A DNA stretch of 55,461 nucleotides from a virus (lineage: Duplodnaviria; Caudoviricetes), in the IMG/VR virus record IMGVR_UViG_3300024265_000005, positions 1 through 55,461 of that record; one strand, written 5' to 3'. Shown here in pieces: positions 13,700 to 30,025 of this stretch. Position numbers and translations under genes: made by a program. Within the stretch, counting starts at the first letter, position 1. Each line of letters begins with the position of its first letter. Below the pieces are notes generated by a model. The model did not search any database. It saw only the letters and a list, made by a program, of their open reading frames with translations, and had not been told where the DNA came from.

Positions 13700-13706
13700 G
13701 AATATT

Positions 13707-14192: not shown

Positions 14193-14359
14193 TGAAAAAA
14201 TTAATACACAAATTGTTATGCAAATTAAATATTCACTGGACTGTCATTCAAGGTGGTGGAGCTCATTTTGGAGATGATCTTTGGACTTGTACTAGTTGCG
14301 CACGAAAAAAATACCCTGAAGTTTTTGGCGGTATCGTCATTAGAAAAATCAAAAAATAA
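14192..14359 (+). CDS. Small hypothetical protein (55 aa, not in the ORF track)
   Basis: ATG overlaps previous TAA; MKKLIHKLLCKLNIHW...CTSC. Confidence 0.55.
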   Translation: MKKLIHKLLCKLNIHWTVIQGGGAHFGDDLWTCTSCARKKYPEVFGGIVIRKIKK

Positions 14360-14371
14360 GGAGGTGGACTG

Positions 14372-14563
14372 ATGAGAATAGAAATACTTGCTAAAATAAT
14401 ATTGACAGTACCTAAACCTGCAGCAGAAGAGACTCCTGAAGATTTTGCGCTTGCTGCTGAACGGCACTTGAACAGTCTTCCACTTTGCATAATGGAAAAG
14501 TCCGCGACACAGGTAGGCGTCAGAGTACATATAGGCGGAAAGGCACCGAAGATTCTGCGATGA
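14372..14563 (+). CDS. Hypothetical protein
   Basis: AAGGAGGT RBS; stop overlaps next start. Confidence 0.65.
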   Translation: MRIEILAKIILTVPKPAAEETPEDFALAAERHLNSLPLCIMEKSATQVGVRVHIGGKAPKILR

Positions 14564-15624: not shown

Positions 15625-15626
15625 TA

Positions 15627-15738
15627 CCAGCAGGGACAGCGACGTATGAAAAATGCAGTAACAAGTCTGGAAGCCGAAGTAACTGAACTTGATTCAGTCA
15701 ACCTTGTTGAAACTGTTGCTTCCTACCTGTCTCGCTGG
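15627..15738 (+). ncRNA. Candidate structured cis-regulatory RNA
   Basis: Nested stems plus a crossing ggaagc/gcttcc pairing; fills the intergenic gap. Confidence 0.45.
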
Positions 15739-15761
15739 CACCTTTTGAAAGGAGAATTAAA

Positions 15762-16643
15762 TTGGCAAAACTAAAACTAAGTAGTACGAGAGTAAGCGCA
15801 AAAGGAAAAAAGCGCACGAAGAGAACTCAGATAAAGGTTTCGATTCCTAAAAGACCATCTAAGATAAGCAATGATCTTCGAAACTACAGTGTGCTTCTTC
15901 ATGGCGAAAAGAAAATAGGCAAAACAACATTGTGGGCACAAGAAGAAGACGCATTCTTTTTGACGTTCGATCCTTTGCAAATTGGTCAATCACTTTATCA
16001 AAGACATGTTCCTTCATGGCCACACTTTCTGGCATATATAAATCTGCTTGAAAAAGATTCTCGGAACGTGAAGACTGTTGTTATTGATGGTGCTGACATT
16101 GCTTATCATCTTTGTTTCAATTGGTCTTGCGAAAAAATGGCAATCGTTCATCCTCACGATGAAAACGATTATGGAAAAAGTTGGAATTTCATTCGTCATG
16201 AATTTGAAAGTGCGGTGTTACGTCTGCTTGCTTTAAATGAAAAAGGAATCGCACCGCGATTTAACTGCCACTCGAAATGGGCAGAAATTAAAACACGTGG
16301 AGGAGGCAAGACCGATAAACTTGTGACTTATTTAACTACGCAAGCAGAAGAAGTTCTGAATGGACGAATTGATCTTTGGGCAGCATACACTTATGTGGAC
16401 AGAAAGCGTGTTTTGATTATCGAAGGCAATGAAGAAATTGGAGCAGGTCATCGAATTGATACAGCTTTCCGTACACCAGATGGTGAATCGATTGCAGAAA
16501 TCGATATGGGCAGATCGCCTAAACAAGCATATCAGAATTTATTGGAGGCATTCGCGAATGAACAAACATATACCGCCATAGACGAACTGACACCGAAGAA
16601 GAAAAAGAAAAAGAAGAGAGTCAAAATCAAAATCAAGAGATAA
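15762..16643 (+). CDS. AAA-family NTPase (Sak4-like recombination protein)
   Basis: LHGEKKIGKTT Walker A, VVIDG Walker B, YGKSW; lies between exonuclease and SSB. Confidence 0.85.
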   Translation: MAKLKLSSTRVSAKGKKRTKRTQIKVSIPKRPSKISNDLRNYSVLLHGEKKIGKTTLWAQEEDAFFLTFDPLQIGQSLYQRHVPSWPHFLAYINLLEKDSRNVKTVVIDGADIAYHLCFNWSCEKMAIVHPHDENDYGKSWNFIRHEFESAVLRLLALNEKGIAPRFNCHSKWAEIKTRGGGKTDKLVTYLTTQAEEVLNGRIDLWAAYTYVDRKRVLIIEGNEEIGAGHRIDTAFRTPDGESIAEIDMGRSPKQAYQNLLEAFANEQTYTAIDELTPKKKKKKKRVKIKIKR

Positions 16644-16673
16644 GTTGTTGTTTTCCAGAAAAGGAACAAACTG

Positions 16674-17810
16674 ATGGCAAAAAAGAAAAGAAGTTTCAGC
16701 AATCGTAAAGCAGGCATCGGTAAAATGTTCAGCGATGCTAAAAAGCAATTCGAAGAAGAAGGTGATCCTTTTGGTATGAGTGTACCGAATGGTCCGTATA
16801 TCGCTACATTGACTGCGGCAGAAAGGAAAGAGTCAGGCAATGATCGATATATCAGCTGGCAAGCAATTGTCGAAGAAGGCGAACAAGAAGGGCAGGACAT
16901 CAACTGGAGATCAAATCTTACGACTGATGAAAATCTCAAATGGTTGCTTATCAATTTCAGTCGTTTCGGCGTTGATGTCAGTGATTTGGAAATTCAAGAC
17001 GATGGAGATCTCGATCAGATCTTAACTGAATTGGTCGACGCTGCGCCGAAAGTTCGTCTCACTTGCAATAGCGATTCAGGCTATCAGAACGTTTTCATCA
17101 ACAAGTTTATCAGTGCCGAAGGACCAGCTGAAGACGAACCTGACGAGCTCGAAAAAGGTGACAAGGTCGAAGGCGACATCGACGGAACATCGTATCCGGG
17201 TACAGTCAAGAAGATCAAAGACGACCAGATCACTATCGACTTCGATGATGACACCACAGAGACGCTCGATGTTTCAGACGTGACGAAGCTCGAAGAGTCA
17301 GCTTGGTTGGACAAACAAGCTGGTTACAAAAAAGGCAAGACGCTTTATGTCGGTACCATCACAGAAGTCGACGAAGATGCTGGCACTTTCGTGATGAAAA
17401 CGGAAGAAGACAAGACAGTGAAAGGTGACATCGACGATCTTGAAGAACCTGAAGCAACTGAAGACGAACCTGACGAGCTCGAAAAAGGTGACAAGGTCGA
17501 AGGCGACATCGACGGAACATCGTATCCGGGTACAGTCAAGAAGATCAAAGACGACCAGATCACTATCGACTTCGATGATGACACCACAGAGACGCTCGAT
17601 GTTTCAGACGTGACGAAGCTCGAAGCAACTGAAGAAGAGGAAGAAACAGTGGATCTCGAAATCGGAGCAAAAGTCGAAGTCACTTACAAAGGAAAGGAAT
17701 ACACAGGCAAAGTCAAAGCAACCAATGAAGATGACGAAGAAGTAACAGTCTATGTGACAAAACTCAAAAAGAAAGTCACTGTGCCTGTTGATGATATCGC
17801 CATCCTCTAA
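16674..17810 (+). CDS. DUF669-like ssDNA-binding protein with four C-terminal Tudor/SH3-like repeats
   Basis: VPNGPYIATL N-terminal domain in the usual SSB position; repeated GDKVE...YPGTVKK..I.FDD units. Confidence 0.7.
   Translation: MAKKKRSFSNRKAGIGKMFSDAKKQFEEEGDPFGMSVPNGPYIATLTAAERKESGNDRYISWQAIVEEGEQEGQDINWRSNLTTDENLKWLLINFSRFGVDVSDLEIQDDGDLDQILTELVDAAPKVRLTCNSDSGYQNVFINKFISAEGPAEDEPDELEKGDKVEGDIDGTSYPGTVKKIKDDQITIDFDDDTTETLDVSDVTKLEESAWLDKQAGYKKGKTLYVGTITEVDEDAGTFVMKTEEDKTVKGDIDDLEEPEATEDEPDELEKGDKVEGDIDGTSYPGTVKKIKDDQITIDFDDDTTETLDVSDVTKLEATEEEEETVDLEIGAKVEVTYKGKEYTGKVKATNEDDEEVTVYVTKLKKKVTVPVDDIAIL
17128..17625 (+). repeat. 168-bp exact in-frame direct repeat (17128-17295 and 17458-17625)
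   Basis: Direct sequence comparison; offset 330 bp. Confidence 0.95.
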
Positions 17811-17899: not shown

Positions 17900-17917
17900 A
17901 GAAAGGAGTATTGTACA

Positions 17918-18475
17918 GTGAGCTTACAAATATATATCGCAGGACCATTTTTCAATAAGCAGAGCAAAGAAATATTGCAGGCAATTTTGGATAAACTGGA
18001 ATTGCTTGGGCACACATGCTGGGCACCGATGCGTGATGGAATTACATGTCCGAAAAATGCAAACGCGGAAACGAGACAAAAAGTGTTCCAGTTAGATTGT
18101 GAACAATTGCATTGGGCAGAATGCGTTGTAGCTTTACTTGACTATCCGTTACCGCCTTATGAACAATTAATGCTGAAGACACAAACTCCAGAAGGAAAAA
18201 TCGATTTCATAGATGCGCACTTGCCTGATCCTGGAACTGTTTTTGAAATCGGATTTGTGAATGGGTTGAACGAGTCAAGGAAAGATCCTTACAGATACAT
18301 TATTGGATACAGCGAGATTTCTGGTTTCAATTTAATGGTATCTGAAGGTTGTGATTGTGTTGTTTCCAGTCTTGCTCAGCTTGAAAGAATAATGGAATTC
18401 GTTGAAAATAAAGACTATAAATCATTATCACTGCTCAAACTTCAGTGCAAACAAGGAGATTTAAACGAATTGTAG
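17918..18475 (+). CDS. Nucleoside 2-deoxyribosyltransferase / nucleotide N-glycosidase family protein
   Basis: IYIAGPFF, VFQLD, DPGTVFEIGF, FNLMV motifs; GTG start after AAGGAG. Confidence 0.88.
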   Translation: MSLQIYIAGPFFNKQSKEILQAILDKLELLGHTCWAPMRDGITCPKNANAETRQKVFQLDCEQLHWAECVVALLDYPLPPYEQLMLKTQTPEGKIDFIDAHLPDPGTVFEIGFVNGLNESRKDPYRYIIGYSEISGFNLMVSEGCDCVVSSLAQLERIMEFVENKDYKSLSLLKLQCKQGDLNEL

Positions 18476-18490
18476 AAAGGAGTCTTAATT

Positions 18491-19111
18491 ATGTTGGACT
18501 TAAGGGAATTACTTGTAGGTTACTCAGTTAGGCTTCGATATGTGAATCGTTTTTCAACATGTCGAGTTTCGAATCCTGAAACTGTGGCAGAGCATTCGTT
18601 TTTTGTTGCTTATTATGCTCTTATGATTGCGAAATGGTGTGATATACAACAAACGGCTAGACTGTGTCCTTTAGATTACAAGAAACTTCTCACAAGAGGA
18701 TTGCTTCATGATATCGATGAAGCAACAACAGGAGATATACCTCGCACATTTAAGTATTCAAATGCTAAATTGAAACAATTATTGAACACTGTAGCAGAAC
18801 ATGGAGTTGAAAATCTCGCTGATCGATTATGGCCTTCCAGTCCTGTCAGTCTTGCTATAAGCGAGGAATGGAAAACTGCAAAAGATGACAGCCTCGAAGG
18901 TCGAATTCTTGAGTTTGCTGACTTTCTTTCTGTCCTTTCATTTTTATATGAAGAAATTCGTGCTTCAAATTTCATTATGCGAGAGCATATATCTGCGATG
19001 CGAGAATATTATGATAGATTCAAGCATCCAGGATATGATTTTCTTCGTCCATTGATCAAAGAAGCAGGAACAATTCTCTTCGAAGAAATACTTGCTGATG
19101 AAACTAAATGA
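18491..19111 (+). CDS. HD-domain deoxynucleotide hydrolase (YfbR/DatZ-like)
   Basis: RF...ETVAEHSF, LLHDIDEATTGDIP, ADFL motifs. Confidence 0.9.
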   Translation: MLDLRELLVGYSVRLRYVNRFSTCRVSNPETVAEHSFFVAYYALMIAKWCDIQQTARLCPLDYKKLLTRGLLHDIDEATTGDIPRTFKYSNAKLKQLLNTVAEHGVENLADRLWPSSPVSLAISEEWKTAKDDSLEGRILEFADFLSVLSFLYEEIRASNFIMREHISAMREYYDRFKHPGYDFLRPLIKEAGTILFEEILADETK

Positions 19112-19388
19112 AGAAGAGCGAAAGATTTTCGAGCAACGTCAAAAAAGATATGGTAATTTTGTCGATGCACATGAAAATCTTGGATTGATTTGGACTGGTT
19201 TAATACAGAATTATTTTCAAATCAAATTACCTGAACCAATTCCTTCTCATCTTGTACTTTTAATGATGGCAGCAAGCAAACTCAACAGGGCAGTTGCTGA
19301 AAAAGATTTGATTGATTCTGACAATTATGATGATGCCAAAATATATGCTGAAATGGCTAAAAAAGCGAAGGAGACACATGAAAAATAA
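19098..19388 (+). CDS. DUF6378-like helical nucleotide-metabolism-associated protein
   Basis: RQKRYG..., MMAASKLNR, DNYDDAKIYA pattern. Confidence 0.7.
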   Translation: MKLNEEERKIFEQRQKRYGNFVDAHENLGLIWTGLIQNYFQIKLPEPIPSHLVLLMMAASKLNRAVAEKDLIDSDNYDDAKIYAEMAKKAKETHEK

Positions 19389-20193
19389 AAATCTCAAACA
19401 TTGGCAAAGCAGATGTCCTGGAAAACAACAAGCAAGAACAAGTCTTTCTGCTGTTCTATTGGATTGGACAGAATTTCCTTTCCATATGATTCATCAACTT
19501 TATTTTTACAACAAGCACGGTACGAAAATGAAAAGATTTCATTCGGCAACCAGATCAGAATTCGAATTCGTTATGGAACTTCTAAAAGAAGATTGGTGCG
19601 GCTTGCTTGAAATGCCAACATTTGTCTGGGCTTTTGTTTTACCTCGAAGCTTGCATGCACAAATACGAACACACAGGCATTGGTCTTTCTTTTCTGAAAG
19701 CCATCAACTTTCTTTGCCTATCGAATTTGCTGATCAGGATGATTACTTTCACATTCCTGGAAAGAGCAGTATTGCAAAAGCAGTTGAACAAGTGGCCATG
19801 AAAGATTCACAAGACCATTACCAAGAATTGCTTGAGCTAGGAGTTTTGCCTTCACTGGCCAGAGGAGTCTTGCCGATGCATATCAATCTTGGCTTGACTG
19901 CTGGATGCAATTTACGTGCTATGTTCCAAACAATAGTTTTGAGGAATTGTAACATTTTGCAATCTACGTATTGGCAACCTTTATTGGAGCAAATGGAAAA
20001 AGAACTTTGCAAGAAAGTAGATGAGCGATTTTCAGAATTGTTTAAACTCAAACCTTGCAATATCAATAAGCGTTGTCTTTCTTCTATAGAGCAGAAGCTT
20101 CGAATAGCTGGACAAGATCCGCATAAACCTTGTAAATACTATTTAGCGAAATTCGCAGATGAAAAAGATTGGAAGATTATTGATGAAAATTAG
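19378..20193 (+). CDS. thyX: ThyX-like flavin-dependent enzyme, paralog 1 (divergent motif)
   Basis: QIRTHRHWSFFSESHQ variant of RHRx7SxR; ARGVLP, NLRAM....LR. Confidence 0.75.
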   Translation: MKNKNLKHWQSRCPGKQQARTSLSAVLLDWTEFPFHMIHQLYFYNKHGTKMKRFHSATRSEFEFVMELLKEDWCGLLEMPTFVWAFVLPRSLHAQIRTHRHWSFFSESHQLSLPIEFADQDDYFHIPGKSSIAKAVEQVAMKDSQDHYQELLELGVLPSLARGVLPMHINLGLTAGCNLRAMFQTIVLRNCNILQSTYWQPLLEQMEKELCKKVDERFSELFKLKPCNINKRCLSSIEQKLRIAGQDPHKPCKYYLAKFADEKDWKIIDEN

Positions 20194-20205
20194 AGAGGAG
20201 TCGTA

Positions 20206-20316
20206 ATGTGGCATTTTCTAGCAGGATTAGTAATCGGCAGTTGGATAGGATTTGGAGTTTTTGCGGTATGTAGAAAGGGTCGTGACGATCGAAATCAGAA
20301 AAGAGTTGAAAGATGA
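20206..20316 (+). CDS. Small single-TM protein (36 aa, not in the ORF track)
   Basis: GAGGAG RBS; MWHFLAGLVIGSWIGFGVFAVC; stop overlaps next start. Confidence 0.6.
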   Translation: MWHFLAGLVIGSWIGFGVFAVCRKGRDDRNQKRVER

Positions 20317-20768
20317 AGATTAATGAATTTACGAATCGATATCGATTTTTGAGTAATTTTTTTACTTGCTCTATTGTCTATGATGGACAGAAATGGAAAA
20401 CTGCTGAACATCTATTTCAAGGATTGAAAACAGATAATTCAATAATGAAAGAAAAGATACGACGTGCAGCAACTCCGGGACAAGCTAAAAAATTAGGGAG
20501 GAGAGTTTGGGATCTTAAATCAAATTGGAAACAAAAAAGAAATCTGCATATGCTTGTCGTTCTTAGGTTGAAATTTAGACAGAATGCAAGATTGGCTATT
20601 AAATTATCTGCAACTGAAGATGCCATTTTAGAAGAAGGAAATCATTGGCACGATAATTACTGGGGCAATTGTTTTTGTCTGAAGTGCGAAAGCATTAAAG
20701 GTAGGAATCAACTTGGGAAACTGTTGATGCAAATTCGAAAGGAATTAAAGAATGAAGATTCGCGATGA
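20313..20768 (+). CDS. NADAR (YbiA-like) protein
   Basis: FLSNF, TAEHLFQ..K, AKKLGR, KFRQN, D.YWG, GRNQLGKLLMQIR motifs. Confidence 0.92.
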   Translation: MKINEFTNRYRFLSNFFTCSIVYDGQKWKTAEHLFQGLKTDNSIMKEKIRRAATPGQAKKLGRRVWDLKSNWKQKRNLHMLVVLRLKFRQNARLAIKLSATEDAILEEGNHWHDNYWGNCFCLKCESIKGRNQLGKLLMQIRKELKNEDSR

Positions 20769-21768
20769 TATCAAATTGTATGCTAAACTTGCTACTGCTC
20801 AAGTTGGTTATGTATCTGGGCAAATAGAAGTTACAAGTAAATGTTATCAACACTGCAAATATTGTTCCAGTTGGCGTGATACTGATTATCGCCACAAAGA
20901 ATTAACTCTTCAACAAATACAGAAAATTGTTCAAGAATTGCTAAACGATTTTCCAATGTTCGAACACCTTACGATAACTGGCGGTGATCCGCAGAAATGG
21001 CAATGGTTAGATAAGTTCTTGCTTTGGTGGCAAGTAGAAAAGATTGATATTGATCTTCAAGTCAGTACAGCATTAGCAAGAGATATTAAGCATCCTGATC
21101 TGTGGCGAACAACAATTAAAGATTTTCGTGTTTCTCTTGATGCTCTCACTGCTCAAACTTATACTTTTATACGAGGCGATCATCAAAATTGTCCAGATAC
21201 AATTTTAACTCGTTTGAAAGAACTTAATCATCCGAATTTGGCAATTATCATTACGATATATCCATCAACTATAAAACAATTATTTCCTCTCTTGGCTTTA
21301 CTTGATACTTTACAATTTAAAGGATTAGCAATCCGTAAAATCATAATAATGGCAGGAATAGGCATGGAGCTTGACAGAAAATTCTGGGATGATTGGGAAC
21401 AGGCTCAAGAATTTGCAACTAACGCATCGGTCGCAACAAGTTTTACTGAAAGCATACCTGAGACAAGAAAGGAATGTGAATCTTCCGTGAACCAGCATGT
21501 TCGTTGTTGGGCAAGTCGGCTTGGATTCCACATAAAACCGAATGGCGATGTTTTTCCATGTTGTCTGGTTGGTGGAGAAGCAATTACAGTCCAGAAAAAA
21601 TTCTGTATGGGCAATATTTTTGAACAAGATCTAATAGATATTTATAATTCGTATACACCAACTACTTATGGCATGGAGTTGACATGCCGAGAATTTTGTC
21701 AGTACAAACAACTATGCATCAATCTTGCTAGTGATCTTGCTGATAAAACGAAACTTGCAATTCCATAA
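20752..21768 (+). CDS. Radical SAM enzyme with SPASM/twitch domain
   Basis: CYQHCKYC (CxxxCxxC), TGGDP, RVSLDA; C-terminal C..IKPNGDVFPCC..MGNI..CREFC. Confidence 0.9.
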   Translation: MKIRDDIKLYAKLATAQVGYVSGQIEVTSKCYQHCKYCSSWRDTDYRHKELTLQQIQKIVQELLNDFPMFEHLTITGGDPQKWQWLDKFLLWWQVEKIDIDLQVSTALARDIKHPDLWRTTIKDFRVSLDALTAQTYTFIRGDHQNCPDTILTRLKELNHPNLAIIITIYPSTIKQLFPLLALLDTLQFKGLAIRKIIIMAGIGMELDRKFWDDWEQAQEFATNASVATSFTESIPETRKECESSVNQHVRCWASRLGFHIKPNGDVFPCCLVGGEAITVQKKFCMGNIFEQDLIDIYNSYTPTTYGMELTCREFCQYKQLCINLASDLADKTKLAIP

Positions 21769-21780
21769 GAAAGGACAAAA

Positions 21781-22041
21781 ATGAAGAACAATATATTTGA
21801 GATCGATACAAATTGTAGATTGGTTGTTAAAGAGACTCATGAAATTGTACCTCTCGATGAACCGGTTTTTATTTTACGAGCTAAAGACAAAAAAGCTTTA
21901 GCAGCAATAGTTGCTTACCGAAGTTCTTTCAATCCTTTCAGCCAAGAGGAAAGACAGATTCAAAAAATCATTAACGAGTTCAGGGAATTCAAGCAAGAAA
22001 ATGCTGACCTTATGCAAGACCCAGAAACGGCCTACAATTGA
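21781..22041 (+). CDS. Conserved phage hypothetical protein
   Basis: DEPVFILRAKD motif; AAGGA RBS. Confidence 0.7.
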   Translation: MKNNIFEIDTNCRLVVKETHEIVPLDEPVFILRAKDKKALAAIVAYRSSFNPFSQEERQIQKIINEFREFKQENADLMQDPETAYN

Positions 22042-22140
22042 TTTCGTCACATTTTGAGACCATTGCACAGGAGCAGGTCAGATATGAGAGCAGTCAAGAG
22101 TCTGGTGCTTAGAAATAGATGATATAAGAGGTGTAGGATC

Positions 22141-22506
22141 ATGGTAAAGACCAAGAGCTTGTTTGACAAATCAGAACTCAGTGATGGCAAACGGATTGTT
22201 GTTAGTTATAAGCTGCCGTCAAAATATTATCTTTCTACTCACAACGCAGTATGGGAAGTATATCTGCCTCCTTATCAGCATATGGTTTACGGATACCGTG
22301 CGGGGCAGATAACCTGGGAGAAGTACACTGAGTTATACCTGCTCAAAATGAAACTCCCGCGAGCAGCGCAAGCTATCAAGAAGCTAGCCACATTGTCGTT
22401 GATTCAAGACATAACTTTATTGTGTTATGAAAAGGAGGACAATCCACATTGTCACAGACATTTATTGAAAGCTCTTATCGACCAAGTAGCCAGTGAACTC
22501 AGTTAA
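22141..22506 (+). CDS. DUF488-family protein
   Basis: ITWEKY...Y and ITLLCYE....HCHRHLL motifs. Confidence 0.8.
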   Translation: MVKTKSLFDKSELSDGKRIVVSYKLPSKYYLSTHNAVWEVYLPPYQHMVYGYRAGQITWEKYTELYLLKMKLPRAAQAIKKLATLSLIQDITLLCYEKEDNPHCHRHLLKALIDQVASELS

Positions 22507-22520
22507 GAGGAGCGCAGAAG

Positions 22521-22727
22521 ATGAACTTAGGCCCAAGAACTAAATCGCACATTGACTCGCTGAGCCATTTTGATTTGCTCAAAGGTCTCCGGTTCGCCGC
22601 TGCAGGCGATCCTTGGTTTCAGAGCGAAACTGGTCGCTATTGGATTAAGCGATTGAAGCAACTCAGAACAAAAAATCCAGCAGCAGCTGTTGCAGATTCT
22701 AAAAGTATTGGATGGGATATAAGATGA
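22521..22727 (+). CDS. Hypothetical protein
   Basis: GAGGAG RBS; RFA..GDPWFQ..TG.Y..SKSIGW. Confidence 0.65.
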   Translation: MNLGPRTKSHIDSLSHFDLLKGLRFAAAGDPWFQSETGRYWIKRLKQLRTKNPAAAVADSKSIGWDIR

Positions 22728-22909
22728 AAACTAACTCATTAAAATCAAAGCGAATATTTCAAGAAAAATGCACAGCTTGTGAAAAAGGATTCGTTTTCGT
22801 TGCGAGAATTGTTCTCCGAGGCGGTCAAGAAGAATTAAAAGCTTTGAGACTTTGTCGAAAATGTAAAGATATATTAATCACTTCAATTGGAAAGGGAAAA
22901 ATAAAATGA
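22724..22909 (+). CDS. Small Zn-finger-like protein
   Basis: CTAC...LCRKC; overlapping start/stop junctions on both sides. Confidence 0.6.
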   Translation: MKTNSLKSKRIFQEKCTACEKGFVFVARIVLRGGQEELKALRLCRKCKDILITSIGKGKIK

Positions 22910-23862
22910 AAGTCACACTACTAACTAAGACAGAGAACATGGAATCGAATCTTTGGTTGATCTGGCAGTTAAGCCGAGGCCAAGAATCGCTGGGAAAAAT
23001 TCGCAATCAACTTTTGGAAAAAGCAGATCTCAACAAATTCTTCGAACGAATTATTAACGAAGATATTCCTCTGGCGGAAATGATTGATTTCATTTTTGTG
23101 CTTGAGGATATTCCAATTTCACTTAGAGAACAACTTGTCCGTCACAGAATTGGCGTAAAGGTTGCTGGTCAAGAATTCTGCGATCTCGTACCTGATTTGG
23201 CTGACTCAAGTTTCTGGTCCCAGAGTATGCGTGTTTTGGACATGAGCAATTTCGAATACTTTGTCCCTGAAAGCGTTCAAAAGGGTACAGATCCGTATGG
23301 CATTTATGCAAAACATATGCTCAATACCAGAATAACATATTCAAAACTTGTTGCTGCTGGTATCCCTCGTGAAGATGCTCGCAATATTATTCCTCTTGGC
23401 GCTGCTCACCGTATCGTTTGGAAATTAAATTTGGCAGCAATCAGACACATCATGAGCAAACGTGGCTGTTGGATTTTGCAGCTTGGTCTTTGGAGGCCTG
23501 TGATTGAAGGTATGGTGAATGAATTATGTAAGTTCAATCCTGTTTTCCGTCAGCTGGTTACTCCGCCGTGTATGCGAGGCGACGAATTTCATGGCTGCTT
23601 GTTCTGCGAAAATAATTATGCTCGGATCGAAGGTGATGTTGATCCGTTGCCACCTTGTCCTCTGTTCTTGAACCATTACCATGAAGAAGCATTGGATTGT
23701 TCCAACGAAGTTTTTCCAGAAAGTACAACTTGTTGGTTCTGGCAATCAGATACAAATAAATGGACTTGTTGTGCTGAAAATCAAATGCCTTTAAAGGAAA
23801 AAATGCGTGTTGATTATGGAAAGTTATGGCAGCGTAATGTTGATACCGGAGAAAAAATATGA
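22906..23862 (+). CDS. thyX: ThyX-like flavin-dependent enzyme, paralog 2 (insertion inside the motif)
   Basis: QLVRHR...SFWSQSMR, GIPREDARNIIP, KLNL.......KR. Confidence 0.85.
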   Translation: MKVTLLTKTENMESNLWLIWQLSRGQESLGKIRNQLLEKADLNKFFERIINEDIPLAEMIDFIFVLEDIPISLREQLVRHRIGVKVAGQEFCDLVPDLADSSFWSQSMRVLDMSNFEYFVPESVQKGTDPYGIYAKHMLNTRITYSKLVAAGIPREDARNIIPLGAAHRIVWKLNLAAIRHIMSKRGCWILQLGLWRPVIEGMVNELCKFNPVFRQLVTPPCMRGDEFHGCLFCENNYARIEGDVDPLPPCPLFLNHYHEEALDCSNEVFPESTTCWFWQSDTNKWTCCAENQMPLKEKMRVDYGKLWQRNVDTGEKI

Positions 23863-24077
23863 TAACCTACACGATTGTTATTATTGGAGGCAGCATTCAT
23901 AAGCCTTTTATAGCGCTTCAGTGGGGAACTACTGCGTTGATATTAGAGTGTGCTCCACTTAGAGATCTCATACAAGCAGCGAAAGAAAAGAGCATATACA
24001 GCGTACTCGAAAGAATTCCGGAATGTCAACGTGAAATTCTGGCTTTTATCTATGAAGAATACCATGATAAACTATAG
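23859..24077 (+). CDS. Hypothetical protein
   Basis: 72 aa, ATGA overlap with upstream gene. Confidence 0.5.
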   Translation: MITYTIVIIGGSIHKPFIALQWGTTALILECAPLRDLIQAAKEKSIYSVLERIPECQREILAFIYEEYHDKL

Positions 24078-26118
24078 GGAATTCACTTGTGCTAAAGTAC
24101 TCGCGATCGACACGGAAACTACCGGAGTAGAAGTTTGGAATGGCGATCAGCCTTATGCTATAAATTTTTTCAATGAAGACGGAAATGCTTTATATTTCGA
24201 GTGGTTTGTTGACGAATGGACACGTACTGTTATTCCAGATCCATTTGAGCTTGAACTCTGCGCTGACATTCTAGGCAATAAAAAAATCAAAAAAGTTTTC
24301 TTCAATGCTAAATTTGATATTCGTATGATGCAAGAAGGGCACGGAGTCAAGACAGTATTCCCGATTGACGACGCTATGTTCATGTCGCACGTGTTCAATT
24401 CTGCTGAACAGCATGCATTGAAACCTCTTAGCGAAAAATACTTAGATTATTCTAGTGATGATCAACAACTGCTGAAAAAAGCAACGATCAAATGTCGGAG
24501 ACAAGCAAAAAAATTAGGCTGGCAAATTCACGAAGATGTAGAAGGTGATTATTGGCTCAACAGGAAGTTGAATCCTGAAAATAAATTATGCGAAATATAC
24601 AACATCAATGATTCAGAACGGACATTCCTTTTAGAAATGTTCTATCGAGAAGCTCTAGAAGAAATGGGTTTAATGCACGTTTATGAAAGGGAAATGGAAC
24701 TCTGGCCTGTAACATATGCAATGGAAAGTCGAGGAATTCGAACTGATCTCGATGTTGTTGAAATTGAAACAAAGAGACACCAAGAAGCAGCTGAATATTG
24801 GCAACATATTGTCGAACATGCGGCATGGCCTGATTTCGATATTAAATCTCCGCAGCAATGTGGAAAGCTTATTTACAGCAAACTAAAATTACCAGTAACA
24901 AGACGAACAAATCCTTCCAAGAAATTTCCTGATGGACAACCTCAAGTAAATATTGATGCTTTGTATCAGTATGTAGCTCATCCTGTGGTCAAAGCTTTAT
25001 TCAAATATCGAGCATCAGCTAAAGCTTTGAGCAACTTCTTTCTAAAATACGAATACTTTGCTCGTCACGACACAATATCTCCAGAAGAATATGTCATTCA
25101 TCCAGACTTCAATCAGGTCGGACCAGCAACAGGCAGATTTTCTTGTCGTCGTCCGAATTTTCAAAACACAGCAGATGCTTTAACTACAAGATCACCTGAA
25201 CCAATTCAAGCTAGAGAGCCTTTTGGCCCTCGCGAAGGATATGTCTGGTTTCATTTTGATTGGAAAGGTCAAGAGCCGAGAATTTTTGCAGAAGTATCTC
25301 AAGAAAAGATTTTACTTGATGCAATCGCAAAAGGACTTGACATACATACTTTTACCGCTAACAAGGCATGGGGCGGAAAAGATAATCCACGTGCTATTGA
25401 TGCTGCTTCGCATGCTCTGGAACTAGATGGTACTGGTGATGGCCAGAATGAAGATGTGCGCAAGCTTTGGAAAAAATATGAAATCAAAAAAGTTTCAGCT
25501 TTGGATGATGATGATAAAATTTTAATCGCAGCAGATTGGATGTCTGATTTCGCTTGGGACATTGAAAGAGCAGAAGCTAGTCTTCATAAAAAGACATGTC
25601 GAGCAAGAAGCAAAATGATTTTCTTTGCTAAGATTTTCGGAGGTGGAGCGAATGCAATCATGGATCTGCTGAAATGTTCCTATCTTGAAGCCATACAATT
25701 TCTTGATGATTATGCAAAGCTTTATCCTCGGATTGATGAATATATTACTGAATTATCAGATCAAGCAAGAATGGATGGTTATATCATTAACGCGTTCGGC
25801 CGAAGACTTGTAATTAATCGGAGCAAACCTTACATCAGTGTGAACTATATGGTTCAGGGAAGCGCAGCAGATATGATGAAAATTAGTCTGACTCGTGTTG
25901 CTAAATATCTGAAAGAACTGGAACTAGACATTCATTTGGTGATGACAGTTCATGATGAACTTGTTCCGGAGTTTTGGAAAAAACATGTATTCAAAAGTGT
26001 GCTTTTAGAAATCAAACGAATCATGGAAGATTTCGATGATGTTTTCCCGATAGGAATGATTGTTGATGTAGAGAAATGTGTTAAAAGATGGAATGAAAAA
26101 ACAAAGGTAATATTGTGA
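24064..26118 (+). CDS. polA: DNA polymerase, family A, with 3'-5' exonuclease
   Basis: DTETTG, FNAKFD, YNIND exo motifs; TGRFSC..PNFQN; DWKGQEPR motif A; RARSK motif B; NYMVQGSAAD; VHDE motif C. Start chosen at the in-frame ATG 24064. Confidence 0.95.
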   Translation: MINYREFTCAKVLAIDTETTGVEVWNGDQPYAINFFNEDGNALYFEWFVDEWTRTVIPDPFELELCADILGNKKIKKVFFNAKFDIRMMQEGHGVKTVFPIDDAMFMSHVFNSAEQHALKPLSEKYLDYSSDDQQLLKKATIKCRRQAKKLGWQIHEDVEGDYWLNRKLNPENKLCEIYNINDSERTFLLEMFYREALEEMGLMHVYEREMELWPVTYAMESRGIRTDLDVVEIETKRHQEAAEYWQHIVEHAAWPDFDIKSPQQCGKLIYSKLKLPVTRRTNPSKKFPDGQPQVNIDALYQYVAHPVVKALFKYRASAKALSNFFLKYEYFARHDTISPEEYVIHPDFNQVGPATGRFSCRRPNFQNTADALTTRSPEPIQAREPFGPREGYVWFHFDWKGQEPRIFAEVSQEKILLDAIAKGLDIHTFTANKAWGGKDNPRAIDAASHALELDGTGDGQNEDVRKLWKKYEIKKVSALDDDDKILIAADWMSDFAWDIERAEASLHKKTCRARSKMIFFAKIFGGGANAIMDLLKCSYLEAIQFLDDYAKLYPRIDEYITELSDQARMDGYIINAFGRRLVINRSKPYISVNYMVQGSAADMMKISLTRVAKYLKELELDIHLVMTVHDELVPEFWKKHVFKSVLLEIKRIMEDFDDVFPIGMIVDVEKCVKRWNEKTKVIL

Positions 26119-26630
26119 AATGCAAAGTTAAAAGTTGCTCAAGAAAAAGATGGGGTAAAAAAGAGTATTGTCGCACACATTATAGAAGGTGGAAAAATTA
26201 TGGCGATGCATATGCTGATATACTCATAAAAGATGGCAGCAAGTTGTCTTTGGCAAATCAAAGAAAAATTTTACAAGCCAAACCAGGATATCAATACTGT
26301 CAACAATGTGAAAAATACAAAAAGACTGAAGAATTTCCTGAAGCTAGACCTTGCATGTGCAAATACTGCGAAAGAAACATTGGATTGAAAAAAATATACG
26401 GTATTGACAATGAAGACTACAATAAACTTTTGAAAAAACAAAAAGGCAGATGTGCATTATGCGGAACAAAAAATCCTGGTCGCAGATACAATTTCTTTTG
26501 TATTGACCATGATCACAAAACAAGAAAAGTGCGAGGATTATTGTGTTGGATTTGCAATGCACATGTAATAGGCGGTATTGAAGCAAGAAAAATACCTGTT
26601 GACCGTATAGCGAAATATTTGCAAAGATGA
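26115..26630 (+). CDS. Endonuclease VII-like (HNH-type) nuclease
   Basis: YGI...Y..LL..Q.GRCALC, IDHDH...VRGLLCWICN motifs. Confidence 0.88.
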   Translation: MKCKVKSCSRKRWGKKEYCRTHYRRWKNYGDAYADILIKDGSKLSLANQRKILQAKPGYQYCQQCEKYKKTEEFPEARPCMCKYCERNIGLKKIYGIDNEDYNKLLKKQKGRCALCGTKNPGRRYNFFCIDHDHKTRKVRGLLCWICNAHVIGGIEARKIPVDRIAKYLQR

Positions 26631-26881
26631 AAAAAGTAAAGACCCATATTGTACCGGAAAACAATGCGTTATTCGGAGGAGTAAAAAAACAAAAAGCACA
26701 TAAAATTTCAATGCGAAAATTGGGAAAAATACATATTTTCTTGACAGAACCAACGAGATTATTATGTCACACCAAAGCATGTGGAAAATGTCGAGTTTCA
26801 TTGAAAAGTTTTAAAGAAATTCATCATCCAAAAATGTGGTGCAAAGGTTGTTTAAAGAAATATAGGAGAATGACATTATGA
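26627..26881 (+). CDS. Hypothetical Cys-rich basic protein
   Basis: 84 aa in an overlapping-gene chain. Confidence 0.55.
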   Translation: MKKVKTHIVPENNALFGGVKKQKAHKISMRKLGKIHIFLTEPTRLLCHTKACGKCRVSLKSFKEIHHPKMWCKGCLKKYRRMTL

Positions 26882-27153
26882 AATCAGATAAAGAAATAAT
26901 TGAACAAAGTGCAGCAATTTACGAAGCTTTACGACGAAGTGAAATTCAACCTTCAGCCAGTCAAACTTTGTTGTTCGAAGCTTCTTGTGCTCTTAAACGT
27001 TATGAAGACCAGTCACGAATGACTATTTCTAATAAGATAATTGGTGAATTGAAAGTACTATCAGGCATGCTTGTTGCATCACCGCAATTCAGTTCAGCCG
27101 GTAAAATCTTAATTGAAATCTTCAGAGAAGAAGGGATTGATCTTGTATCATGA
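26878..27153 (+). CDS. Hypothetical protein
   Basis: AGGAG RBS, overlapping chain. Confidence 0.6.
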   Translation: MKSDKEIIEQSAAIYEALRRSEIQPSASQTLLFEASCALKRYEDQSRMTISNKIIGELKVLSGMLVASPQFSSAGKILIEIFREEGIDLVS

Positions 27154-27608
27154 TTAAAATTGCGATTGTTTCAGAATTATTGTCTGATACAGAAGAGATC
27201 CATAAACTTCTAGCTAAGCATTACATAATTGAAAAGACAATTACTGGAAAAAGCGATACTTTTTTTACGCAAACAATTACAATAATAGATTCTCCGGGAC
27301 AAGCAATAGACTTGTTGTGTACTGCAACGGGAATTGATCCCAGAAAGAGATCTAAAAGAAGAGGCGCAATATGCGTTGCTTGTGCAGCATGTTATCTGCT
27401 TCGATATCGATTTCATTTGTCACATGAAATGATAGCTAAACGGTTGCATTATGTGAATCGTATAAGTTCGATCATACACTGCAAGCATATGCCTGAAATA
27501 GACGTCGATAGAAAAACTGTTCCTATTGAACTTGCAATAGAACGTGTATTTGAGAAAGCGAAAAAATATCCACCAACAGATAATAGAGGACAAGGACAAC
27601 GAAAATGA
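27150..27608 (+). CDS. Hypothetical protein with DnaA C-terminal-like HTH
   Basis: YLLR....LS...IA..L....R.SSII.H pattern. Confidence 0.5.
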   Translation: MIKIAIVSELLSDTEEIHKLLAKHYIIEKTITGKSDTFFTQTITIIDSPGQAIDLLCTATGIDPRKRSKRRGAICVACAACYLLRYRFHLSHEMIAKRLHYVNRISSIIHCKHMPEIDVDRKTVPIELAIERVFEKAKKYPPTDNRGQGQRK

Positions 27609-27949
27609 AATTCAAAGTGACAGATGCAACTAATTTTTTGAGAGTATTCTGTGTGCCTTCGATATTTCCATCAGGTTATTGTTTTGATGGAGGTCATGTA
27701 GTTCCTTTTGTAATGGTAGATTGGTTCAATGCTCTTGATCCAATGGCAGAATTACCAATTGAATTCAGAAACACTGATGAATGGTACTTGAAGCACATTG
27801 AAAAATTGAAAACATTTATAAAAGGAAAGAAGTATTTCAATCCAAAACTCACCTACATGATATTGACTGATTATGGAGACGTATTCTTGGTAAATCCAGA
27901 ATTAAGAGCAGAAAAATTGCAGAAACAAATGGATGAACTCAAACAGTAA
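27605..27949 (+). CDS. Hypothetical protein
   Basis: 114 aa, overlapping chain. Confidence 0.6.
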   Translation: MKFKVTDATNFLRVFCVPSIFPSGYCFDGGHVVPFVMVDWFNALDPMAELPIEFRNTDEWYLKHIEKLKTFIKGKKYFNPKLTYMILTDYGDVFLVNPELRAEKLQKQMDELKQ

Positions 27950-27961
27950 AAGGATTAGCAT

Positions 27962-30025
27962 ATGGACGTGTCAAGGAAGATAAAACCGTATCTCTGTTTT
28001 GGATTTAATCAGGCCAAAAAGTTAGGCGATGAATATGTTGGACGTTGTCCGCTTTGTGATAGGAAAGATCATTTTTATGTCAATGAAAAAACAGGACTTT
28101 TCAGCTGCAAGAGTTGTAGTGAAGAAGGCAACACTTATACTTTTTTGAAAACATATTCAAATCTTGTATACGAATCAACAACGACTGAAGAGTACCGAGA
28201 GTTGGCCAAACACCGTGGTCTTCCAGTCAAAGCTCTGCGTGATTGGCGGTTAGGCTGGAATGGTGAACATTGGCTCCTGCCTGTCCTTTCGGAAAAAAAG
28301 ACTTGTCGAGATATTCGACGATGGAATCCGAAAGACAAGAAGAATCCTATGAAATCAACTGCAGGGTGCAAGGCTCAACTCTATGGATGGTACAGGGCTT
28401 CACGGTTGGATGCAGGCTCGACGATATACATCTGTGAGGGCGAATGGGACGCGATCGCTCTATCATGGCTCTTGTGGCGAGCAGGAGTCGTTAACGTAGG
28501 CGTTGTAGCAGTGCCTGGCCAGAACACTTTCAAAGATGAATGGATTGACGATTTGAAACCTTATCACATTATTCTTTGTTATGATAACGATTCTCCTGGA
28601 GAGGCAGGAAGCGTTAAAGCCTTCCATAAACTCAAAGACAATCCTGAAGAGATCGAAGTACTCTCATGGCCAGCAAGATTCCCTAAAAGTTATGATGTTC
28701 GTGATTTCATCCGAGAACAAATCCAAGAAAAAATAGGCCCAAAGAAAATCCTCAAAAATTTGAGAGCATACGTTGTCGAACCTGAAGAACTCTCTAGGTA
28801 TCTCGATGAAGAAGATCAAGTTGAAAAGGAGGAAGACATTCTTGAAAATCCTCCAAGTTTCAATGAAACTTTAACTGTCTATAAAAAATGGGCAGACATG
28901 AGTCCTGATCTTGTCAACGCTCTAAAAATTATGTTCGCTGTTGTTCTCTCGACAAAAATGGCAGGCGATCCTCTCTGGATGTATATTGTAGGTCCGTCAG
29001 GATCAGGTAAAACTATGTTGCTGATATCGTTGAGGAGGAATCCTCAATCTGTTTTTGTTAGCAACGTTACTTCGAAATCAATAGTTTCAGGATTCAAGAC
29101 CAAGCCTGATCCAAGTTTACTTCCGAAGTGGAACAACAAAACCTGTGTATGGAAAGACTTTACTGAAATTCTTGAAAGCAGAGATAAAGACGAAATCTAT
29201 TCAACCTTGCGAGGAGCTTTTGATGGTCAGGTCCACCGGACTTTCGGCAATGCTGTTGAACGTATTTATGACAACCTGCATTTCTCAATGCTCGCAGGTG
29301 TTACTCCCGCAGTTCACGGTGATAAAAAAGCCATGTTAGGAGAACGATTTCTGAAGTTCGAGATCTTTAAAAACATCAATGAAGATACTACTACCCAGAT
29401 TGAAGCAGCAATGAGTGACAGTGGCAAGGAAGATTTAATGGCCAGAGAGTTGGAACTCGCAGCCAAGAATTTCTTAGCTCGCAAGATAGATTTGCCTCGC
29501 CTTCCTGAGTGGGTTAAGAAAAGAATTATTGCTCTCAGCCAGCTGACTTCGATGCTGACTACTGTTATTGACCGCGAGCAATTCGGTAATCGCGAAGTTT
29601 CGTATATGCCCTCTCCACAAATTGGTACACGAATTGCAAAACAGCTTGCCAAACTTGCGAGGTTTATAGCCTTAGTAATGGGGCATAAATCCGTTCAATA
29701 TGAGGACTATTTACTTGTTGAAGATACAGCTTTCAGCACATCCAGAAAGATGTATTTATTGATTTTATCGACCATCGCAAAAACTGGTGGTTCGGCCACA
29801 ATTAAGGAAATCCAGTTAAGGACACGATTAGGATGGTACACAATTTCCAGTCAAATCAATGATTTACACCTGTTGGGAATCATCGATCAAGCGTCGATTG
29901 AGCATACAAAATTAAAAGGGCGTCCTAGCATAAAATGGAAATTGACGAAAAAGATGGAGTCTTTATTCGCTTTCGTTAAACTTGGTGAAAAACTACTTAA
30001 AGCTAGAAGGAGAAAAGACTTATGA
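27962..30025 (+). CDS. Primase-helicase (Zn finger, TOPRIM, AAA+ helicase)
   Basis: CPLC..CKSC; ICEGEWDA, CYDND TOPRIM; GPSGSGKT Walker A. Confidence 0.9.
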   Translation: MDVSRKIKPYLCFGFNQAKKLGDEYVGRCPLCDRKDHFYVNEKTGLFSCKSCSEEGNTYTFLKTYSNLVYESTTTEEYRELAKHRGLPVKALRDWRLGWNGEHWLLPVLSEKKTCRDIRRWNPKDKKNPMKSTAGCKAQLYGWYRASRLDAGSTIYICEGEWDAIALSWLLWRAGVVNVGVVAVPGQNTFKDEWIDDLKPYHIILCYDNDSPGEAGSVKAFHKLKDNPEEIEVLSWPARFPKSYDVRDFIREQIQEKIGPKKILKNLRAYVVEPEELSRYLDEEDQVEKEEDILENPPSFNETLTVYKKWADMSPDLVNALKIMFAVVLSTKMAGDPLWMYIVGPSGSGKTMLLISLRRNPQSVFVSNVTSKSIVSGFKTKPDPSLLPKWNNKTCVWKDFTEILESRDKDEIYSTLRGAFDGQVHRTFGNAVERIYDNLHFSMLAGVTPAVHGDKKAMLGERFLKFEIFKNINEDTTTQIEAAMSDSGKEDLMARELELAAKNFLARKIDLPRLPEWVKKRIIALSQLTSMLTTVIDREQFGNREVSYMPSPQIGTRIAKQLAKLARFIALVMGHKSVQYEDYLLVEDTAFSTSRKMYLLILSTIAKTGGSATIKEIQLRTRLGWYTISSQINDLHLLGIIDQASIEHTKLKGRPSIKWKLTKKMESLFAFVKLGEKLLKARRRKDL

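Follow-up and report, generated by a model that had tools for sequence, protein, structure and literature searches.

The viral genome record IMGVR_UViG_3300024265_000005, referred to throughout as the window, is a complete record of 55,461 bp that carries an exact 470-bp direct terminal repeat (positions 1-470 and 54992-55461) and has all of its called genes on the + strand. Positions 17918-26118 of this genome contain a run of nucleotide-metabolism genes that ends at a DNA polymerase and includes two paralogous members of the ThyX family, here named ThyX1 and ThyX2. The run opens with an enzyme of the N-deoxyribosyltransferase (NDT) fold (17918..18475; PF05014, 9.5e-12), whose GTG start lies within an open reading frame (ORF) of 17858-18475, and continues with an HD phosphohydrolase of the YfbR (5′-deoxynucleotidase) type (18491..19111; PF12917, 1.6e-22) and the small four-helix protein DUF6378 (19098..19388; PF19905, 1.8e-09). 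These are followed by ThyX1 (19378..20193; PF02511, 5.1e-17), a divergent paralogue within a ThyX clade marked by four cysteines, a NADAR-domain protein (20313..20768; PF08719, 1.9e-25) that resembles YbiA-like N-glycosidases or ADP-ribose-related hydrolases, and a radical S-adenosylmethionine (SAM) enzyme with a SPASM/twitch-type auxiliary cluster domain (20752..21768; PF04055, 6.9e-10; PF13186, 1.3e-08). The four-cysteine protein ThyX2 (22906..23862; PF02511, 4.1e-22) precedes a family-A DNA polymerase with a 3′-5′ exonuclease domain, PolA (ORF 23950..26118, first ATG at 24052; PF00476, 3.1e-63; PF01612, 5.1e-14).

The eight families and their order had been read from the sequence in a first-pass annotation, which proposed that they form a single DNA base-modification pathway, and both families and order are confirmed by Pfam, with PHROG and NCBIfam in agreement at the family level. 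The same annotation described the genes as contiguous and mostly overlapping. Half of the 12 junctions do overlap, by 4-17 nt; the other six are gapped, three by 12-15 nt and three by 99-189 nt, and the stretch from the radical SAM gene to ThyX2 contains four ORFs that had been overlooked, which leaves the order of the named genes unaffected. These ORFs are orf86 (21781..22041), a DUF488-N3a protein (22141..22506; PF22751, 6.6e-18), and the small overlapping orf68 and orf65 (22521..22909), the latter with two CxxC pairs. No match to orf86 was found in Pfam, PHROG or NCBIfam, and its sole homologue, 48% identical, is in a related locus (L003); orf68 and orf65 matched no family and have no homologue among the 79 related loci described below. 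Promoter-like sites (43, against 39.0 +/- 6.2 in shuffles) and terminator-like sites (14, against 9.9 +/- 3.4) between positions 15500 and 30500 are no commoner than in shuffled sequence, so that transcription units and operon boundaries cannot be read from them. The region gave no megablast match in 50,697 phage records, and a scan of viral contigs with the single ThyX2 sequence returned no relative. Among public sequencing runs, one DNA run, kept as contigs of a subsurface metagenome and possibly the source, is listed as containing this DNA, and no RNA run is listed.

Alignment A1, composed of 22 ThyX2 homologues, recovered 79 distinct loci from IMG/VR, and the proteins of the window were searched against the six-frame ORFs of each, a procedure by which weak homologues may have been missed. 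ThyX2 is present in all 79 loci, the primase-helicase in 40, PolA in 34, HD in 32, the SNF2 helicase in 27, and NDT, DUF6378 and the AAA_24 ATPase in 26 each. The recurring order is SNF2, orf161, orf379, AAA_24, orf378, NDT, HD, DUF6378, a variable slot, ThyX2, PolA, and primase-helicase, with PolA directly 3′ of ThyX2 in 34/79 loci. Because the same NDT-HD-DUF6378-ThyX-PolA order is found in loci whose ThyX2 proteins are only 31-67% identical to that of the window, the arrangement goes beyond chance. NDT, HD, DUF6378, and ThyX2 beside PolA are thus a conserved unit, and the earlier suggestion that nucleotide-metabolism genes are tied to the polymerase is borne out by this recurrent synteny. 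The loci span 35-64% GC, on which ground the idea that HD and NDT serve an AT-rich phage in a GC-rich host was rejected.

The remaining genes of the run are distributed differently. The radical SAM enzyme is found in 13 of the 79 loci, ThyX1 in four, and NADAR, orf86, and DUF488 in one each. The one locus with NADAR and orf86 is that of the closest relative, L003. This relative lacks DUF488, whose position is filled by an HNH endonuclease, and the sole locus with DUF488 belongs to another lineage. NADAR and DUF488 are accordingly accessory cargo that lies outside of the conserved module. Co-occurrence across phages, which had been put forward as a check on the proposed pathway, therefore holds for NDT, HD, DUF6378, and ThyX2 with PolA, and fails for NADAR, ThyX1, and the radical SAM enzyme, none of which is fixed. 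Eight genes that are not co-inherited very probably do not constitute one pathway, and the locus is better described as a conserved four-gene unit with a cargo slot.

The slot lies between DUF6378 and ThyX2, and its content was tallied over the 34 loci that have ThyX2 together with at least one of NDT, HD, and DUF6378. It holds a radical SAM enzyme in 12 of these loci and a short-chain dehydrogenase/reductase (SDR; adh_short, 2.5e-19 and 1.3e-25) in nine, both together in none, and neither in 13. The three states (radical SAM, SDR, neither) are interspersed on the ThyX2 tree, where L033, with a radical SAM gene, falls in a starred clade (99/95) with the SDR-bearing L044 (SDR at 9058-9792), L051, and L058, so that the alternation of radical SAM and SDR is not merely a difference between two clades. 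In three loci the slot takes in a dCMP deaminase, and its other cargo comprises class-I methyltransferases, a DNA N6/N4 methylase, and an HNH endonuclease. Members of a family in which the motif LDDD is invariant (alignment A5) also adjoin ThyX2, with three paralogues in L062 (1984-6857) and one each in L045 (9025-9990) and L043 (8877-9989). This family has no Pfam match; in the ESM Atlas it lies near clusters of viral galactosyltransferases (score 0.94) and folds of the GT2 type (TM about 0.5), and its neighbour in L062 gives a weak match to GT8 (3.1e-4, below the cut-off). By the ESM Atlas its members look like GT-A glycosyltransferases, and DNA glycosylation may take place in those relatives.

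ThyX2 scores 79.3 bits against the Pfam model PF02511 (cut-off 24.8), the Thy1 domain that both of the window's paralogues have in common with canonical ThyX such as Thermotoga maritima TM0449 (PDB 1kq4, 3g4c, 4p5a). Invariant in the 22 homologues of A1 are R74, E75, Q76, R79, H80, Q106, M108, R109, R159, and R186, along with the cysteines C188, C222, C231, and C251. ThyX2 keeps Q76, R79-H80-R81, S107-x-R109, R159, and R186, which align with residues of T. maritima ThyX that we take to form its nucleotide site; the retained elements correspond to Q..RHR, S-x-R, and the arginines of ‘EDAR..PL’ and ‘KRG’ (T. maritima R147 and R174). The ThyX motif is RHRxxSxxxxSxR. Both of its halves, R79-H80-R81 and S107-M-R109, are present in ThyX2, with 18 more residues between them, inserted after RHR, than in the canonical spacing or in ThyX1. 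Both paralogues differ from the canonical enzyme by their four invariant cysteines and a C-terminal extension, and the folate-stacking histidine of the canonical enzyme is unconserved in ThyX2 and replaced by tryptophan in ThyX1. Five SDR-bearing relatives (three at least 95% complete, two less so) each have exactly one ThyX, which is ThyX2, and no ThyA. From its residues, ThyX2 is most likely the phage’s flavin-dependent thymidylate synthase.

Of the 755 candidates that were scored, 256 are homologues of ThyX2 at E<=1e-3, and all of these are metagenomic. Two strict peptide patterns, to which the search was limited, retrieved no member of the family from 185,579 species-representative genomes, and relatives in cultured phages are at most 29.5% identical. 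The four-cysteine clade is seen only in metagenomes.

A ThyX2 homologue also occurs in a different fixed setting in a second lineage of about 29 loci (L007-L065), on contigs of 80-115 kb. There, a CobT-like gene, two copies of a 346-aa uncharacterised family, a weakly Thi4-like gene, and a PNK-like gene precede ThyX2, and a class-III aminotransferase (8.2e-67), a thymidylate-kinase-like P-loop protein, an ExoX-like protein, and DnaE follow it (for example, L055:10915-12120 and L059:12274-12873). The thymidylate-kinase-like gene fits the supply of dTMP and the aminotransferase beside ThyX does not; no cultured relatives of the latter were found among true phages.

ThyX1 (PF02511, 62.7 bits) and ThyX2 are paralogues that match each other with an hhalign probability of 99.8% (E 3.7e-28) and have the four invariant cysteines and the C-terminal extension in common, and both are far from solved structures (phmmer 3.2e-3 and 1.4e-3, single sequences against the PDB). 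The ThyX1 family comprises 28 proteins, or about four representatives at 50% identity. Across the 17 sequences of alignment A2, the motif HAQxR[T/V]HRHWSFFSESHQ is invariant, as are C191, C227, C233, and C252. Aligned with PDB 4p5a, ThyX1 has W73 at the position of the canonical histidine, T98 at the first arginine of RHR, and Q110 at the arginine of SxR. The tryptophan is invariant and aligns with the histidine of ‘RHGSPFEH’ in 4p5a, and the RHR...SxR stretch retains canonical spacing with its first arginine changed to threonine or valine and its last to glutamine. These substitutions are fixed in 17/17 aligned members.

The altered residues are found in a protein that is well conserved. ThyX1 is 53-69% identical to its homologues in the four related genomes and exceeds both ThyX2 and the radical SAM enzyme in each pair. 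In L005, L016, and L070, respectively, ThyX1 is 53%, 57%, and 59% identical to that of the window, as compared with 45%, 43%, and 43% for ThyX2 (from a partial sequence in L070), 34%, 37%, and 41% for the radical SAM enzyme, and 49% and 35% for PolA, which is not present in L070. Judged by these identities, ThyX1 is the best-conserved protein of the module and is not a decaying copy. In each of its four loci ThyX1 is accompanied by the radical SAM enzyme and ThyX2, and the genes follow the order DUF6378, ThyX1, radical SAM, ThyX2 that the window likewise shows. Moreover, 12 metagenomic contigs that bear ThyX1 are each equal in size to a ThyX2-bearing contig, an indirect sign that the two genes reside on the same contigs.

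A search of 1.84 billion representative proteins with a profile of the ThyX1 family gave 1,193 matches at E<=1e-3, 253 at E<=1e-10, and 21 at E<=1e-30. The clade motif R-x-C-x-x-Q was present in each of the 54 top representatives inspected (54/54). The motif region could be recovered for 36 of these, of which 33 have RH[RK]...S/T-x-R and three have the ThyX1 signature SESHQ. The best-ranked relative from a cultured phage is 31.6% identical to ThyX1, and two lower-ranked, partial matches from Synechococcus phages are 32.1% identical. Most members of the ThyX1 family (A2, C-termini of P0136-P0148) end in an additional CCGxGCxGC, a possible second metal or Fe-S site that is missing from ThyX1 of the window and its closest relatives.

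The radical SAM enzyme is invariant across 12 homologues (alignment A4) at C31x3C35x2C38, GGDP, C252, C270, C312, and C316, and no NCBIfam model reaches its cut-off with this protein. In all of the 13 loci where it is found, it is located between DUF6378/ThyX1 and ThyX2. Its predicted model (predicted local distance difference test score, pLDDT, 85.3) is matched by Foldseek to SuiB (2.6e-14) and DesII (TMq 0.69), then to BlsE, MoaA, and anSME, with CteB, SkfB, and BtrN also among the matches; the ESM Atlas places it only in generic radical SAM/SPASM clusters. Among species genomes there is one close match, in a 3.7-kb scaffold (L087), and four matches at 25-27% identity. L087, which is binned to a Kiritimatiellales metagenome-assembled genome, has orf378, NDT, HD, DUF6378, the radical SAM enzyme, and PolA; the bin is a possible, weak hint as to host. 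The NADAR protein reaches the cut-offs of both PF08719 (90.4 bits, cut-off 35.1) and TIGR02464 (80.8, cut-off 73.7), and it matches NF053876, a NADAR family listed among anti-phage systems, at 1.7e-15, which is below the cut-off of that model.

Of the three small enzymes that open the unit, NDT scores 45.5 bits against PF05014 (cut-off 28.8) and matches phrog_7995 at 8.8e-13, and its nearest PDB entry is the N-deoxyribosyltransferase 6evs (9.7e-06). The stretches YxAGPFF, PDxGTxxExG (D104, G106, E110, G112), and LNLM (N138, M140) are invariant in 19 homologues (alignment A6), and they include the glutamate of DxGTxxExG and the asparagine of NLM, presumably the catalytic residues. NDT looks active on the evidence of these motifs, either as a base-exchange transferase or as a nucleotide N-glycosidase. 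HD scores 80.5 bits against PF12917 (cut-off 25.9) and has the metal motif H35, H73-D74, and E77 in its translation. The equivalog NF003009 is not reached (41.4 vs 122 bits), and the PDB matches include 3mzo (Lin2634; 3.3e-09), YfbR (2paq; 1.9e-06), and OxsA (5.2e-04). Likening HD to DatZ, as had been done at first reading, fits its match to phrog_7076, labelled ‘dATP triphosphohydrolase’ (7.6e-21). The PDB search does not support an identity with DatZ, which is not among the six sequence matches at E<=0.01 (these are YfbR/OxsA-like instead), and there is no PurZ in the genome.

DUF6378 has invariant K61, R64, D75, and D79 in 26 homologues (alignment A3) and a confidently predicted model of four helices (pLDDT 93.4). 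A PDB profile search gave no matches at E<=1 and Foldseek none at E<=0.001; the best structural match in VIA, a weak one, is to the MazG-related 2yxh (Z 5.9). From this model, DUF6378 may be MazG-like. MazG has an acidic motif of the EExxE type.

Thymidine hypermodification, in phages such as M6, ViI, and PaMx11, begins with a ThyA-type dUMP hydroxymethylase and needs 5-HMUDK and aGPT-Pplase, and the radical SAM enzyme of M6 resembles spore-photoproduct lyase, according to PMC8989533, which also mentions the exocyclic-methylene intermediate of ThyX. The window resembles these systems in the addition of one carbon at C5 and a subsequent tailoring step, which in M6 involves a radical SAM enzyme. 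It differs from them by a radical SAM enzyme of the SPASM/twitch type and by lacking PF00303 in six frames and 5-HMUDK and aGPT-Pplase among 50 ORFs. The six-frame search of the whole genome likewise found no PurZ-like PF00709, thymidylate kinase PF02223, dCMP deaminase PF00383, or dUTPase PF00692, and no glycosyltransferase, kinase, or aGPT-Pplase family was found among the 50 ORFs scanned with Pfam, a set in which ORFs below ~100 aa are mostly not included. The absences listed in the first-pass annotation (PurZ, thymidylate kinase, and ThyA in six frames; glycosyltransferase and kinase families in the 50 ORFs) thus stand, and its statement that the genes match no described pathway also remains valid, as no PurZ, Que/Dpd, ThyA-type hydroxymethylase, 5-HMUDK-like kinase, or aGPT-Pplase was found.

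The Z-genome phages S-2L and phiVC8, which use PurZ, DatZ, MazZ, and DpoZ, are alike in placing a synthase, an HD hydrolase, and possibly a MazG-like protein beside a family-A polymerase, and the PolA of phiVC8 is a distant match to that of the window (23.7% identity). They differ in that the window has no PurZ/adenylosuccinate-synthetase homologue in six frames and in that HD is nearest to YfbR, OxsA, and Lin2634, while DUF6378 has invariant K, R, D, and D instead of the acidic EExxE-type motif of MazG-like proteins. A second comparison can be made with radical SAM enzymes that replace NAD-dependent dehydrogenases, namely BtrN, anSME, and DesII; BtrN and an NAD-dependent enzyme carry out the same step in related antibiotic pathways. 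These enzymes have the SPASM/twitch architecture, DesII gives the highest template modelling score (TM-score 0.69), and the occurrence of an NAD(P)-type SDR in the same slot of relatives, never alongside the radical SAM enzyme, is a parallel to the BtrN case. Identities are 13-18%, however, and the RiPP maturases SuiB, CteB, and SkfB score equally or better by E-value, so that the fold does not point to any one substrate class. In MilA/MilB and BcmA/BcmB, a ThyA-type C5-hydroxymethylase acting on CMP is paired with an NDT-fold N-glycosidase. The pairing in the window is alike, with a ThyX-type transferase in a phage replication module here, and the likeness is one of description only.

The closest parallel in gene content is Bacillus phage SP-15, whose DNA carries 5-(4′,5′-dihydroxypentyl)uracil. 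SP-15 has two Thy1 proteins, gp9 and gp130, with NDT (gp127) and SDR (gp129) directly upstream of gp130, and its HD 5′-nucleotidase, a homologue of HD at 28.6% identity, is encoded elsewhere in the genome. In PMC5977210, gp129 is among the candidate modification genes, and it is hypothesized that gp9 is a thymidylate synthase and gp130 a hydroxymethyl-dUMP synthase. Both systems thus have two Thy1 genes, one of them very divergent, and the NDT-SDR-Thy1 order of SP-15 matches the NDT...SDR-ThyX2 order of nine relatives of the window. SP-15 differs in being a 222-kb myovirus with its own deoxynucleoside kinase and dCMP deaminase and no radical SAM gene beside gp130. The similarity of gp130 (413 aa) to ThyX2 is marginal (BLASTP 0.011; hhalign probability 6%) and there is none to ThyX1; with a probability of 6%, homology of gp130 and ThyX2 beyond the Thy1 domain is not claimed. 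A paper that links phage ThyX with radical SAM and NDT was not found, with the proviso that the supplements of PMC5977210 and PMC8989533 may cover gp127 and gp129.

The interpretation that we favour, at a probability of roughly 0.45 and on the strength of residues and gene order, is a two-layer model in which a conserved unit for dTMP supply and remodelling of the nucleotide pool is joined by a candidate branch towards a new pyrimidine, formed by ThyX1 with the radical SAM enzyme. The first layer would consist of NDT, HD, DUF6378, and ThyX2 with the polymerase, and the second would occupy the variable slot between DUF6378 and ThyX2. In the first layer, ThyX2 would make dTMP as a flavin-dependent thymidylate synthase, and HD would remove the phosphate of deoxynucleoside monophosphates (dNMPs), such as those released from host DNA. 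NDT would shift deoxyribose onto uracil or thymine, or would cleave unwanted dNMPs, and a host kinase would then regenerate dUMP or dTMP; DUF6378, perhaps as a small nucleotide pyrophosphatase, would contribute to the same pool. In the second layer, ThyX1 would no longer convert dUMP to dTMP and would transfer a one-carbon unit to a pyrimidine nucleotide that it recognises in a different way, or would yield a different product, such as one of the 5-hydroxymethyl type. The radical SAM enzyme would oxidise or tailor the product of ThyX1 or a cofactor, as the SDR may do in relatives. The second product is inferred from the fact that ThyX1 is the best-conserved protein of the module and yet has its nucleotide and folate contacts replaced by invariant residues, while the alternation of radical SAM and SDR, as a matter of context, suggests an oxidoreductive tailoring step.

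A bolder form of this model, in which ThyX1 is the first ThyX-fold enzyme with a product other than dTMP and, with the radical SAM enzyme (or the SDR in oxic relatives), builds a new thymine or uracil for DNA as ThyX2, HD, and NDT balance the canonical pool, is unlikely, at something like one chance in four. That the virion DNA contains a non-canonical pyrimidine of any kind is likewise doubtful. Of the new modified pyrimidine proposed at the outset, then, a rewired ThyX duplicate beside a radical SAM enzyme remains as a fair candidate, and the core module is explained equally by plain supply.

Several observations weigh against the two-layer model. ThyX1 and ThyX2 both fall below the cut-off of the NCBIfam equivalog TIGR02170 (51.4 and 60.3 vs 87.9 bits), and ThyX2 is without a conserved counterpart of T. 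maritima H53, which we take to be the folate-stacking histidine: the position five before the conserved glutamate varies, in an N-terminal stretch where the alignment with solved ThyX is low-scoring. Given the missed cut-off and the missing histidine, even the assignment of ThyX2 as the thymidylate synthase is unproven. The slot behaves as a plasticity region of the phage that also takes up HNH endonucleases, methyltransferases, NADAR, and DUF488, which makes adjacency weak evidence for a shared pathway, and 13/34 loci have neither a radical SAM enzyme nor an SDR in it. In the L087 scaffold, a fragment of this module, PolA follows the radical SAM gene with no intervening ThyX, so that the radical SAM enzyme does not depend strictly on an adjacent ThyX. 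A dNMP kinase, a dUTPase, and a recognisable dNTPase, which phages that replace a base usually need, are missing from the window genome, and no gene for modification at the DNA level was seen in it. A route from HD through NDT to a host kinase wastes a phosphate bond and needs that kinase, and the MazG-like reading of DUF6378 is weak since a Z of 5.9 is within the chance range for helical bundles. With gp130 barely similar to ThyX1 or ThyX2, SP-15 is a parallel of gene content only, and the functions assigned across the module are drawn from motifs and neighbourhood.

The alternative closest to the two-layer model, though unlikely as a full account, is that the whole region serves ordinary dTMP and dNTP supply: ThyX2 would act by itself or in a hetero-tetramer to which ThyX1 contributes an accessory subunit, HD, NDT, and DUF6378 would be salvage enzymes, the rest would be cargo, and the DNA would be canonical. 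For the core module considered by itself this conservative explanation, already raised in the first-pass annotation, is about as likely as any other, given the dUMP-site arginines of ThyX2 and the absence of kinase and dNTPase. The same arginines are kept in 33 of the 36 clade representatives for which the motif region was recovered, and the five related genomes checked have one ThyX and no ThyA, the window also being without ThyA. E. coli YfbR is part of a deoxycytidine route to dTMP, a dCMP deaminase is found in the slot of three relatives, and in the second lineage ThyX2 has a thymidylate-kinase-like gene next to it. Neither a kinase or dNTPase nor a glycosyltransferase or a gene for DNA-level modification was seen in the window genome, and the cargo of the slot is mixed. 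The T4 genes td and frd are neighbours, by analogy with which the SDR could be explained as a reductase of the dihydrofolate type. A redundant synthase should decay, however, and ThyX1 is the best conserved of the proteins, with altered residues that are invariant. Plain supply likewise does not explain why a radical SAM enzyme is found in every ThyX1 locus, why radical SAM and SDR exclude each other (0/34 loci with both), why GT-A-like paralogues surround ThyX2 in L062, or why 29 second-lineage loci have a class-III aminotransferase next to ThyX2, and part of the slot cargo (the SDR, glycosyltransferase-like genes, and a methyltransferase) is not needed for it.

A single pathway of all eight genes, in which HD, NDT, DUF6378, and NADAR destroy a canonical pyrimidine, ThyX1, ThyX2, and the radical SAM enzyme build a new one, and PolA is adapted to it, is improbable. 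It would follow the logic of the Z-genome clusters, with which the match of HD to phrog_7076 agrees, it has the gene content of SP-15 as a parallel, and NADAR and NDT both have folds of the N-glycosidase type. The distribution of the genes over the 79 loci (NADAR 1, DUF488 1, ThyX1 4, radical SAM 13) argues against it, as do the absence of DatZ from the PDB matches of HD and of a dedicated kinase from the genome, and the destruction of dTMP would conflict with the canonical dUMP site of ThyX2, the sole such enzyme in most relatives. Equally improbable is a role in counter-defence, by which HD, NDT, NADAR, and perhaps the radical SAM enzyme would act on immune nucleotides, DNA ADP-ribosylation, or dNTP depletion, with ThyX as a bystander. 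NADAR proteins reverse guanine ADP-ribosylation by DarT, the NADAR protein of the window is related, below cut-off, to the anti-phage-listed NF053876, and the variable slot cargo resembles counter-defence islands; NDT, HD, and DUF6378, on the other hand, are fixed in the replication module and are not variable cargo, the nearest solved relatives of HD and NDT are deoxynucleotide and deoxynucleoside enzymes, and no known anti-defence family was detected. Explanations of other kinds have only a very small share of the probability.

To our knowledge, every known phage route to C5-modified pyrimidines begins with ThyA-type enzymes, and a route of the ThyX type has only been guessed at, for SP-15. 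The analysis defines a large, metagenome-only clade of four-cysteine ThyX proteins, a rewired and conserved ThyX1 that is tied to a radical SAM enzyme, and a fixed NDT-HD-DUF6378-ThyX unit beside the polymerase in dozens of uncultured phages, and it gives DUF6378 a testable context. If the chemistry of ThyX1 is new, DNA base modification would gain a flavin-dependent branch, and new enzymes for making modified nucleotides would become available. If it is not, the module shows how a large phage lineage supplies its own thymidylate without ThyA, dUTPase, or kinase.

The surrounding genes are those of replication and virion structure. Upstream of NDT are the SNF2 helicase, orf161, orf379, the AAA_24 ATPase, and orf378 (12171..17810, + strand; Pfam), which are syntenic in 19-27 of the 79 loci. 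Downstream of PolA are an endonuclease VII (PF02945, 5.6e-17), four small ORFs, and the primase-helicase (PF01807, Toprim), together at 26115..30025 on the + strand. PolA matched 1,890 phage records, all at less than 60% identity and at no more than 27% among the 30 matches listed. Directly 5′ of NDT, orf378 (16674-17810) is kept in 19/79 loci and has many weak matches to Tudor-, chromo-, and SH3-like small beta-barrel domains, such that it looks like a barrel repeat. The structural genes (portal, Mu-F-like protein, XkdF-type protease, tape measure, and J-like tail tip) are those of a long-tailed phage. Within this set, a 500-aa protein at 38156-39658 combines a C-terminal XkdF-type prohead protease domain (2.2e-31) with a weak N-terminal match to GNAT acetyltransferases (5.3e-4). 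Elsewhere, a YAcAr/SLOG-family protein is encoded at 6634-7011 (6.2e-07), and an outer-membrane beta-barrel domain at 8077-8781 (5.7e-08) hints at a Gram-negative host.

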